Source: Felixounavirus LF82P3
Direction: 5' to 3' (one strand)
DNA length: 64,000 nt
Sequence record: OZ035772.1
Shown here: piece by piece, positions 41,919 to 42,704 of the stretch
Layout: each line of letters begins with the position of its first letter
How positions within the stretch are numbered: the first letter of the stretch is position 1
Translations under genes and position numbers: made by a program
The notes under the pieces: generated by a model
The model's input: only the letters and a program-made list of their open reading frames with translations
The model's database searches: none
Told to the model about the DNA's origin: nothing

Positions 41919-42704
41919 ATGGGTATTGTAAAAATCATCAATGGTGATATCTTTGCCGCATTTGATAAAGGTAAGTTTGACATCATTGGTCACGGTTGCA
42001 ACTGTATGAATTTAATGGGTGCAGGTATCGCTGACAAGATTTCTAAACTTTACCCAAAAGCATATGAGACCGATACAGAGGTTTATCTCTATGCAGGTGG
42101 TATAGGTCACAAACCCTGTGAAAATTTACTGGGTAATTTCTCTGTAGCACGTTTAAAACAAGGTCGTATAGCTAACCTTTACACTCAGCTTAAGACTGGT
42201 AAAGATGCCCGATACAGTGCTTTAGAGTCATCTTTGAAGCAACTTAACAGATACTGTGAAGTTAATCAGTTGAAGAAAGTTGGTTTACCTATGATTGGTG
42301 CAGGTATCGGTGGACTTGACCCTCAAGCCGTCACAGTTATCATCAATCAGGTGATGAAGAGTGTAGATGTTTATCTATATGTCTATGAAGGAGAGATGTA
42401 CCACAAGTTACTCTCAGGTTGGAAGAACTACTGTGAACCAGAATACTTTGCAGGTGTAGCAGTGTTCACAGATAACGCAGTTACCCTCTTCAGACGAAGA
42501 AAAGGTAAGATACATCAAAGTAACCCTCCGGTTGAAAAGATGTCTCTAAGTAACGCTCTAGTTACCCACCTGTCAAAGAGCAATCACAGAATTGCTGTAA
42601 CATTTGGTAGTGATGCAGAAGCTTATATCTATGCAAGAACTGATGAGGATATTGAGGCAATCTTCTCTTCACCAGAAGTTACCTTCTTAGACGCAAAGAA
42701 CTAA
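41919..42704 (+). CDS. Macro-domain-like protein (ADP-ribose binding/hydrolase fold)
   Basis: IINGDIF...DIIGHGCNCMNLMGAGIADKI and VGLPMIGAGIGGLDP resemble macro domain motifs. Confidence 0.5.
   Translation: MGIVKIINGDIFAAFDKGKFDIIGHGCNCMNLMGAGIADKISKLYPKAYETDTEVYLYAGGIGHKPCENLLGNFSVARLKQGRIANLYTQLKTGKDARYSALESSLKQLNRYCEVNQLKKVGLPMIGAGIGGLDPQAVTVIINQVMKSVDVYLYVYEGEMYHKLLSGWKNYCEPEYFAGVAVFTDNAVTLFRRRKGKIHQSNPPVEKMSLSNALVTHLSKSNHRIAVTFGSDAEAYIYARTDEDIEAIFSSPEVTFLDAKN

Follow-up and report, generated by a model that had tools for sequence, protein, structure and literature searches.

An AdfM-like macrodomain protein with an orphan C-terminal domain, encoded downstream of the NARP1 genes of Felixounavirus LF82P3, as a candidate counter-defence factor

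The DNA considered here, referred to as the window, is a stretch of 64,000 nucleotides from Felixounavirus LF82P3 (OZ035772.1). An open reading frame of 261 amino acids plus stop runs from ATG to TAA exactly at 41919..42704 on the plus strand. The original prediction had described its product as a macro-domain-like protein and, in view of NAD+-related genes about 8 kb upstream, had suggested that it might belong to a broader anti-defence strategy. The genes and features on which the following argument depends are:

31727..32608, plus strand: Adps, a Prs-like ADPR pyrophosphokinase, the first NARP1 enzyme (gp79 of phage Bas63)
32654..34435, plus strand: Namat, a Nampt-like nicotinamide ADPR-transferase, the second NARP1 enzyme (gp80 of Bas63)
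41919..42704, plus strand: AdfM-like macrodomain protein with two domains, an ORF of 261 aa plus stop (gp95 of Bas63)
41919..42386, plus strand: macrodomain of the Tk.4/AdfM type, residues 1-156, recognized by Pfam Macro, PDB profile, AF2/Foldseek and identity to Tk.4
42387..42701, plus strand: C-terminal orphan domain, residues 157-261
42734..42775, plus strand: terminator-like hairpin, a 17-bp stem followed by a T run, 30 nt past the stop of the macro gene

Because the terminator-like hairpin at 42734-42775 follows its stop codon, the macro gene would be the last gene of its transcription unit, and 450 nt of non-coding DNA extend beyond this terminator in the 3′ direction. A second terminator-like site, at 40376-40393, lies on the start side of the unit, and the unit that begins after it also includes the spanin genes. 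The ATG of the macro gene is positioned one base past the stop of a small ORF, and the same-strand ORFs upstream in the unit encode 75-115 amino acids each. Three ORFs scanned upstream (40924-41190, 41196-41519 and 41627-41914) gave no Pfam match above threshold, and the Rfam scan of the 40-50 kb region gave no match. With these short ORFs on one side and the terminator and non-coding DNA on the other, no darT toxin gene was found adjoining the macro gene.

Sequences like the 3-kb stretch around the macro gene occur in 245 phage records, and the best of the Felixounavirus matches have ~95% identity. The protein corresponds to gp95 of Bas63 (JohannRWettstein, MZ501086), as judged from synteny and 97% identity, and is 100% identical to a "putative phosphatase" of Salmonella phage SUT_S820; in phage C600M2 the same protein carries the label "O-acetyl-ADP-ribose deacetylase". 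The labels "phosphatase" and "Poa1p-like" that the macro family bears in databases derive from yeast Poa1p. Homologues are present in ~2,790 of 50,697 phage records, and the number found hardly depends on the query (2793 with the 261-aa protein, 2750 with T4 Tk.4). The homologues are mostly single domains of ~150 aa, and most of those in IMG/VR are 146-184 aa long. Between genomes that are otherwise ~94% identical, the macro gene is swapped from codon 48 on for a 42%-identical allele.

The description of the protein as macro-domain-like is borne out for the first ~156 residues by sequence, profile and model. Pfam Macro (PF01661) matches residues 25-141 with E=1e-7 and 32.4 bits, where the gathering score is 22, and the match to PHROG 335 has E=5e-113. 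In a phmmer search of the PDB the single sequence already retrieves TARG1 (E=1e-5) and SARS-CoV-2 Mac1 (E=3e-4). A family profile, which was built from a MAFFT alignment of 31 member sequences, retrieves human TARG1 (4e-17), DarG of M. tuberculosis (5e-16), Poa1p (2e-15) and SCO6735 of Streptomyces coelicolor (5e3b, 3.8e-15). The closest sequence relatives in the PDB are BT1257 (2fg1/2afc), proteins without known function. The AF2 model of the full-length protein reaches pLDDT 90 and pTM 0.88, and Foldseek finds 241 PDB matches at E<=1e-3, of which the best 50 are all macrodomains; TARG1 is the top match (E=3e-10, TMt 0.86), and Poa1p and the DarG macrodomain are among the leaders that follow. 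The structure prediction that had been proposed as a check on the call thus returned a macrodomain, and the call is not overturned on grounds of fold. According to the model, residues 1-156 form a macrodomain with the three-layer alpha/beta/alpha fold, for which ADP-ribose binding is predicted, and this macrodomain is placed in the ALC1-like (TARG1/DarG/SCO6735) and Poa1p-like branch. The call does not extend to the last ~105 residues, which form a separate orphan domain.

The N-terminal motifs from which the macrodomain had originally been proposed are real and invariant in the family (HGCN at 41991-42002 and MGAGIA at 42015-42032). Together with two further motifs they outline the predicted active site:

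41991..42002, plus strand: the H25-G-C-N28 motif, equivalent to H23 of Poa1p, to His24/Asn27 of SCO6735 (transitively) and to N22 of DarG
42015..42032, plus strand: M33-GAGIA38, the glycine-rich loop 1, predicted from alignment to hold the ADP-ribose diphosphate
42174..42188, plus strand: N86-LYTQ90, with Gln90 where TARG1, DarG and PhiKZ AdfM have their catalytic Lys
42288..42314, plus strand: P124-MIGAGIGG132, the phosphate-binding loop 2, predicted from alignment

Sixteen positions are invariant in the 31 sequences, namely H25, G26, N28, C29, M33, G36, A38 and P46, and further G72, N86, L87, T89, Q90, P124, G127 and G129. MGAGIA (33-38) and PMIGAGIGG (124-132) are invariant or nearly so and align with the loops of TARG1/OARD1 (4j5r), which is the best PDB match by profile and by fold and has both ADPr-binding loops in common with the phage protein. 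However, the catalytic residues differ: Q90 aligns with K84 of TARG1 and G131 with D125, and therefore the TARG1 catalytic dyad K84/D125 is absent from the 261-aa protein. MacroD-type macrodomains (MacroD1/2, viral Mac1) are characterized by the motifs N-x6-GG[VLI]D and G[VIA][YF]G. Both are absent here, as loop 1 reads NCMNLMGAGIA, with no Asp after the glycines, and loop 2 reads GIGG, with no aromatic residue.

The position of Lys84 in TARG1 is that of K80 in DarG, and in SCO6735 it is taken by Gln85 (PMC9411070). SCO6735 functions without the Lys/Asp dyad; Gln85 is essential in it, Asn27, His24 and Gly128 are important, and the enzyme cleaves thymidine-linked ADPr on DNA and guards against DarT (PMC9411070). 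SCO6735 (5e3b) and the 261-aa protein are both ALC1-like and dyad-less, and Gln would occupy the catalytic position in both. The residue types of the SCO6735-like constellation, His-x-x-Asn ... Gln ... Gly, are all invariant in the macro family, the equivalence of Gln90, His25 and Asn28 being transitive (through the TARG1 alignment and PMC9411070); only loop 2 was aligned directly to 5e3b, and there G129 corresponds to Gly128. On the other hand, SCO6735 is a bacterial, SOS-regulated protector of the housekeeping type with a single domain, unlike the two-domain protein of the phage.

Among phage proteins the decisive comparison is that with Tk.4 of T4 (NP_049723), whose residues 2-152 align with residues 3-157 of the 261-aa protein at 34% identity (E=3e-24). 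The likeness is one of whole-domain homology with the same invariant motifs, HGCNC..MG[AS]G, NLYTQ and PxIGAGIG (MGSG and PRIGAGIG in Tk.4), and H25, N28, Q90, G127 and G129 are all present in Tk.4, so that Gln again stands at the position of the DarG Lys; both are non-structural phage genes. These features identify the 261-aa protein as a Tk.4-type, Gln-type AdfM homologue. T4 tk.4 is annotated as "contains A1pp phosphatase motif" (NP_049723), and it enables T4 to evade DarTG2, a bacterial defence that ADP-ribosylates DNA. In a November 2025 preprint tk.4 was the only significant HIDEN-SEQ (transposon-screen) hit against DarTG2, and T4 became sensitive to this system once the gene had been cleanly knocked out; the authors named it adfM, for anti-DarT factor Macrodomain, and the T4 evidence is genetic (bioRxiv 10.1101/2025.11.20.689424). 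Two differences should be kept in mind. First, Tk.4 is one domain of 155 aa, whereas the 261-aa protein adds a C-terminal domain of 105 aa; second, T4 tk.4 is located between tk and vs, whereas the gene described here follows NARP1, rIIA/B and the spanin genes. With 34% identity to Tk.4, substrate specificity may differ as well.

The link with DarTG is also evident in the defence and NCBIfam model libraries, where DarG models are the sole matches (PADLOC DarG 3.9e-13, covering model positions 18-145 of 329; antitoxin_DarG 1.5e-12, with 47.5 bits against a cut-off of 250). As the latter model is matched only at positions 4-150 of 338, the DarT-binding C-terminal domain of DarG2 is absent here. 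With PhiKZ gp104 and the bacterial DarG2 macrodomains (5m3e, 5m3i) the protein has the macro fold in common, and their Asn (N23/N22) is kept as N28; the substrate predicted for it is likewise DNA with ADPr-thymidine. The catalytic Lys sets them apart, K80 of DarG2 being Gln90 here. PhiKZ gp104, which was named AdfM independently, is a DarG2-like macrodomain of the Lys type that strips DarT2-made ADPr from DNA in vitro (PMC13309987, Cell Rep 2026). It is 23% identical to the 261-aa protein, and its K78 stands opposite Gln90 in the BLAST alignment.

Taken together, the likeliest function of the protein is the removal of DarT2-type ADP-ribose from phage DNA, as a counter-defence ADP-ribosylglycohydrolase of the AdfM family. 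We consider this probable, with confidence somewhat above even, because the homology, at 34%, is to a protein characterised by genetics, and because the active site matches that of an enzyme characterised by biochemistry. Among the roles that had been offered for the gene, the reversal of DarTG-type modification is accordingly the one best supported, through the homology to Tk.4, as far as sequence comparison can tell. The N-terminal macrodomain would bind the ADP-ribose that DarT2-type toxins put on thymidine of single-stranded phage DNA and would hydrolyse the N-glycosidic link, so that the DNA could be replicated again and ADP-ribose would be set free. Catalysis could be of the SCO6735-like "Gln type", in which Gln90, held by Asn28 and aided by His25, would position the distal ribose and the water in place of the Lys of DarG, TARG1 and PhiKZ AdfM.

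The same relatives leave room for another class of substrates. ADPr linked to protein is a substrate of TARG1 and SCO6735 as well, which are the closest relatives that have been characterised (PMC9411070), and the reversal of RNA base ADP-ribosylation is discussed for TARG1-/DarG-class enzymes (PMC13036486). The protein could then erase the mono-ADP-ribosylation of protein or RNA by other host ART toxins (CmdT-type mRNA ARTs, uracil-ADPr), or limit an ART encoded by the phage itself. A candidate for the latter would be the neighbour at 44180-44722 (gp107 of Bas63), for which "slight structural homology" to the NAD-binding domain of RNA 2'-phosphotransferase has been described (PMC11482910). 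However, no support for gp107 as an ART was found at the sequence level, and the scan of neighbouring ORFs, which covered part of the 64-kb window, brought up no further ART. The sole known phenotype of the AdfM family is, moreover, that against DarTG2 (bioRxiv 10.1101/2025.11.20.689424), and a role as an eraser of protein or RNA modification is accordingly regarded as decidedly unlikely.

Two arrangements with neighbouring genes were considered and rejected. A writer-eraser pair with the Tpt1-like gp107 at 44180-44722 gained no support from Pfam, PADLOC, NCBIfam or PDB sequences, even with a profile of 7 sequences, and the likeness to Tpt1 is kept here as a structural hint from the literature. 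An RNA-repair pathway comprising Pnk, Tpt1 and the macro protein was abandoned as the "polynucleotide kinase" at 39193-39888 has no Pfam match at E<=0.01; its distant homologues give weak or faint matches to HAD_PNKP.

The processing of ADPR-derived signals, which had also been suggested, fared worse. Macrodomains bind the ADPR-derived signals of TIR/Thoeris systems (gcADPR, His-ADPR) in the ThsA effectors of type II Thoeris, and comparative genomics has led others to propose the breakdown of soluble ADPr signals as a task of phage Macro domains (PMC7824862), so that the protein might serve as a degrader or sponge of such molecules. Nothing specific points that way: neither homology nor experiment ties the protein to known anti-Thoeris factors or to Thoeris itself, the PADLOC match is DarG and not ThsA, and the invariant catalytic constellation fits glycohydrolases acting on DNA or protein. 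A role against Thoeris is therefore highly improbable.

The genomic setting raises the question of whether the protein works on its own or within NAD+ metabolism. The NAD+-related genes expected upstream do exist, as a Prs-like and a Nampt-like gene on the same strand, 7.5-10 kb upstream, and they are the proven NARP1 pair of Bas63. Since NARP1 is an experimentally proven counter-defence pair, the anti-defence framing of the locus is reasonable. NARP1 rebuilds NAD+ from ADPR and nicotinamide and thereby defeats NAD+-depleting defences (10.1101/2024.02.11.579819; PMC11482910). In the PhageMaP study of Bas63, DarTG was outside the defences tested and gp95 goes unmentioned (PMC11482910).

The linkage between macro genes and NARP1 is real but partial. 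In Pakpunavirus YS35 the Prs gene, a small ORF, the Nampt gene, a small ORF and the macro gene are contiguous on one strand, in Vibrio phage K460 the macro gene abuts a ribose-phosphate pyrophosphokinase, and at four IMG/VR loci (L068, L071, L072 and L081) Prs- and Nampt-like genes lie less than 5 kb from the macro gene; at a fifth (L050) a Nampt-like gene lies 9.6 kb from it. The gene order Namat, rIIA, rIIB ... macro recurs with the more distant homologues that have two domains (33-36% identity). On the other hand, no Prs- or Nampt-like gene is present within 10 kb at 43 of the 48 IMG/VR loci outside Ounavirinae. Such a partial linkage fits the clustering of counter-defence genes and a biochemical hand-off alike.

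In a rival reading the macrodomain would be a metabolite enzyme, which hydrolyses small ADPR derivatives to free ADPR and so feeds Adps and Namat or clears toxic by-products. Candidate substrates are ADPR-1''-phosphate from ADPR-cyclic-phosphate (a side product of ADPR-PP), O-acetyl-ADPR and other 1''-substituted ADPR. ADPR-cyclic-phosphate has been detected in Bas63-infected cells as a side product (10.1101/2024.02.11.579819), on account of which a Poa1p-like role in clean-up stays in the running. Several features recall Poa1p (6lfq), an ADP-ribose 1''-phosphate phosphatase: it ranks with the best matches by sequence and by fold (Foldseek E=2e-9), the H-x-C-N-C..G-G-G-I-A motif is common to both, His23 is kept as H25, and the macro family is also annotated as Poa1p-like phosphatase. 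The homologues beside NARP-type genes (YS35, K460 and the four loci with both genes) would suit a role at the metabolite level, as would the synteny of Namat, a HAD_PNKP-like gene and the macro gene, which is retained down to ~33% identity, and the fusion of one homologue (P0026) to Pfam cREC_REC, a predicted cyclic-phosphate-processing domain. A long insertion sets Poa1p apart from the phage protein. Against the metabolite role, S30 and F152 of Poa1p, which are mutated in 6lft and 6lfu, correspond to L32 and G131 in the phage protein, the gene stands apart from Prs- and Nampt-like genes at most of the loci outside Ounavirinae, and anti-defence genes are often grouped without a common pathway. 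T4 is not known to have NARP1. It retains tk.4, the knockout phenotype of which is specific to DarTG2 (bioRxiv 10.1101/2025.11.20.689424), and the NARP1 paper mentions no macro partner (10.1101/2024.02.11.579819). A metabolite enzyme working for NARP1 is therefore considered unlikely, although it is taken seriously.

The removal of ADP-ribose from DNA, the reading preferred here, would connect with NARP1 by the hand-off mentioned above. The ADPR freed in this way, and the nicotinamide that DarT gives off, would be precisely what the NARP1 enzymes of the phage use as substrates, and so both modules could jointly undo the DNA damage and the loss of NAD+. The macro and NARP1 modules are also adjacent in unrelated Pseudomonas phages, and DNA de-ADP-ribosylation may cooperate with NAD+ reconstitution.

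The C-terminal domain (residues 157-261) is beta-rich with one helix in the AF2 model, and it is predicted with confidence in the full-length protein and with moderate confidence when modelled alone (pLDDT 74). It has no Pfam match, the BFVD search found nothing beyond the protein itself, and in a profile search of 1.84e9 representative proteins it occurred solely in macro-family fusions and two fragments. Matches to three repeat proteins (P0033, P0034 and P0036) were dismissed as artefacts of repetitive sequences. A loose MAFFT alignment to the cREC_REC part of P0026 had suggested a cREC domain, but this was rejected: the mainly beta structure with its single helix that AF2 predicts is not the (beta-alpha)5 receiver fold, and Pfam gave no match. 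Family members do not agree in the net charge of this domain, so that neither a DNA-mimic nor a DNA-binding role gains support. The domain diverges much faster than the macrodomain: in related genera its identity is 46-55%, where the macrodomain has 76-81%, and in the distant group the corresponding values are 16-20% and 41-47%. This fast divergence, together with the allele swap described above, is among the signs of an arms-race gene.

The C-terminal 105 residues could be regarded as a lineage-specific add-on. By analogy with the second domain of DarG2 they may bind a toxin or target the enzyme, although this is speculation. In its fullest form the proposal would be that the two-domain protein of Ounavirinae is a "complete" orphan antitoxin and more than an eraser, in which the fast-evolving C-terminal domain, as a second module for neutralising or targeting, binds DarT2-like toxins or else ssDNA or the replisome, and which is in addition coupled to NARP1. 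We regard this combination as quite unlikely; if true, defences that consume NAD+ and modify DNA would be countered by a closed loop of repair and recycling.

The presence of AdfM as an anti-defence family was known already, and what is added here is a Felixounavirus member with a variant two-domain architecture. With the orphan C-terminal domain, a small and so far unexplored region of protein space is joined to a known enzyme. The comparison of active sites suggests that phage AdfM comes in two chemical flavours, the Lys type of PhiKZ, as in DarG, and the Gln type of T4 and of this phage, as in SCO6735. For hundreds of FelixO1-like phages, the gene that databases label "putative phosphatase" or else "O-acetyl-ADP-ribose deacetylase" thereby becomes a specific anti-DarTG2 candidate, in a group of which several members are used or have been proposed for the biocontrol and therapy of Salmonella and E. 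coli.

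Homologues of rIIA/rIIB are located 1-8 kb from the Tk.4-type macro gene, a relative of the T4 gene for the macrodomain protein AdfM, in many unrelated phage contigs among IMG/VR loci L040-L087 (for example L042, L051, L054, L058-L060, L067, L077, L078, L080 and L087). Among these loci, linkage of the macro gene to rIIA/rIIB is commoner than linkage to the NAD-salvage (Prs-/Nampt-like) genes. This proximity may reflect only the common synteny of an early/middle gene block.

In LF82P3 itself, two ORFs, one on each side of the macro gene, have counterparts in the Felixounavirus relative Bas63.

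39193-39888, + strand: 231-aa ORF, Bas63 gp87, annotated as 'polynucleotide kinase'
44180-44722, + strand: 180-aa ORF with the N-terminus MKCYHGTT, equal to Bas63 gp107

The product of 39193-39888 has no Pfam match at E<=0.01, and its counterparts on distant syntenic contigs give HAD_PNKP matches that are only weak or faint; it may be a PNKP-type phosphatase. PhageMaP (PMC11482910) described 'slight structural homology' between gp107 and the RNA 2'-phosphotransferase NAD-binding domain, and reported that the gene matters more in E. coli S17-1. The product of 44180-44722 is without a sequence match in Pfam, PADLOC, NCBIfam or PDB; its homologues, 374 records, belong to Felixounavirus, Pakpunavirus and phages of Erwinia and Vibrio. 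The motif H5-G-T-T8 is invariant.

The DNA that follows the terminator-like hairpin of the macro gene contains several elements.

42776-43224: non-coding DNA of about 450 nt, 3' of the terminator
42778, 42851, 42890 and 42935: copies of the motif TCATTTYNRAWYTGTGCAGG(TA)
42970-43012: C-rich tract, 3' of the motif copies
43133-43161: promoter-like TTGACT-17-TAATAT, 5' of ORF 43225

Four direct copies of the motif, which is about 20-25 nt long, lie in this stretch and none elsewhere in the 64 kb; the number of matches expected was 0.34. In Bas63, the matching region is annotated with two small reverse ORFs. The array may represent a set of regulator-binding sites where the small-gene block begins.

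In the Erwinia-phage-like contigs L038 and L039 the macro ORF is likewise 261 aa long, and its alignment to the LF82P3 protein is limited to residues 3-166; the tail of about 95 aa is either a different domain or the same one diverged past recognition. A metagenomic homologue of 339 aa (P0026) combines the Tk.4-type macrodomain with a receiver domain predicted to process cyclic phosphates (Pfam PF20274 cREC_REC) in one fusion protein, an architecture which hints that the substrate of some Tk.4-type members is ADPR cyclic phosphate or a small molecule related to it.

An allele exchange is found in the two Felixounavirus contigs L036 and L037 (IMG/VR), which elsewhere share about 94% DNA identity with the window. 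Compared with window 42062-42889, homology is lost past codon 47 of the macro gene and regained at 42890, and everything between, with the C-terminal domain and the terminator, is exchanged for a different allele, one of the P0009 type (259 aa), with a protein identity of only 42%. Mosaic swaps of this kind are typical for genes engaged in an arms race.
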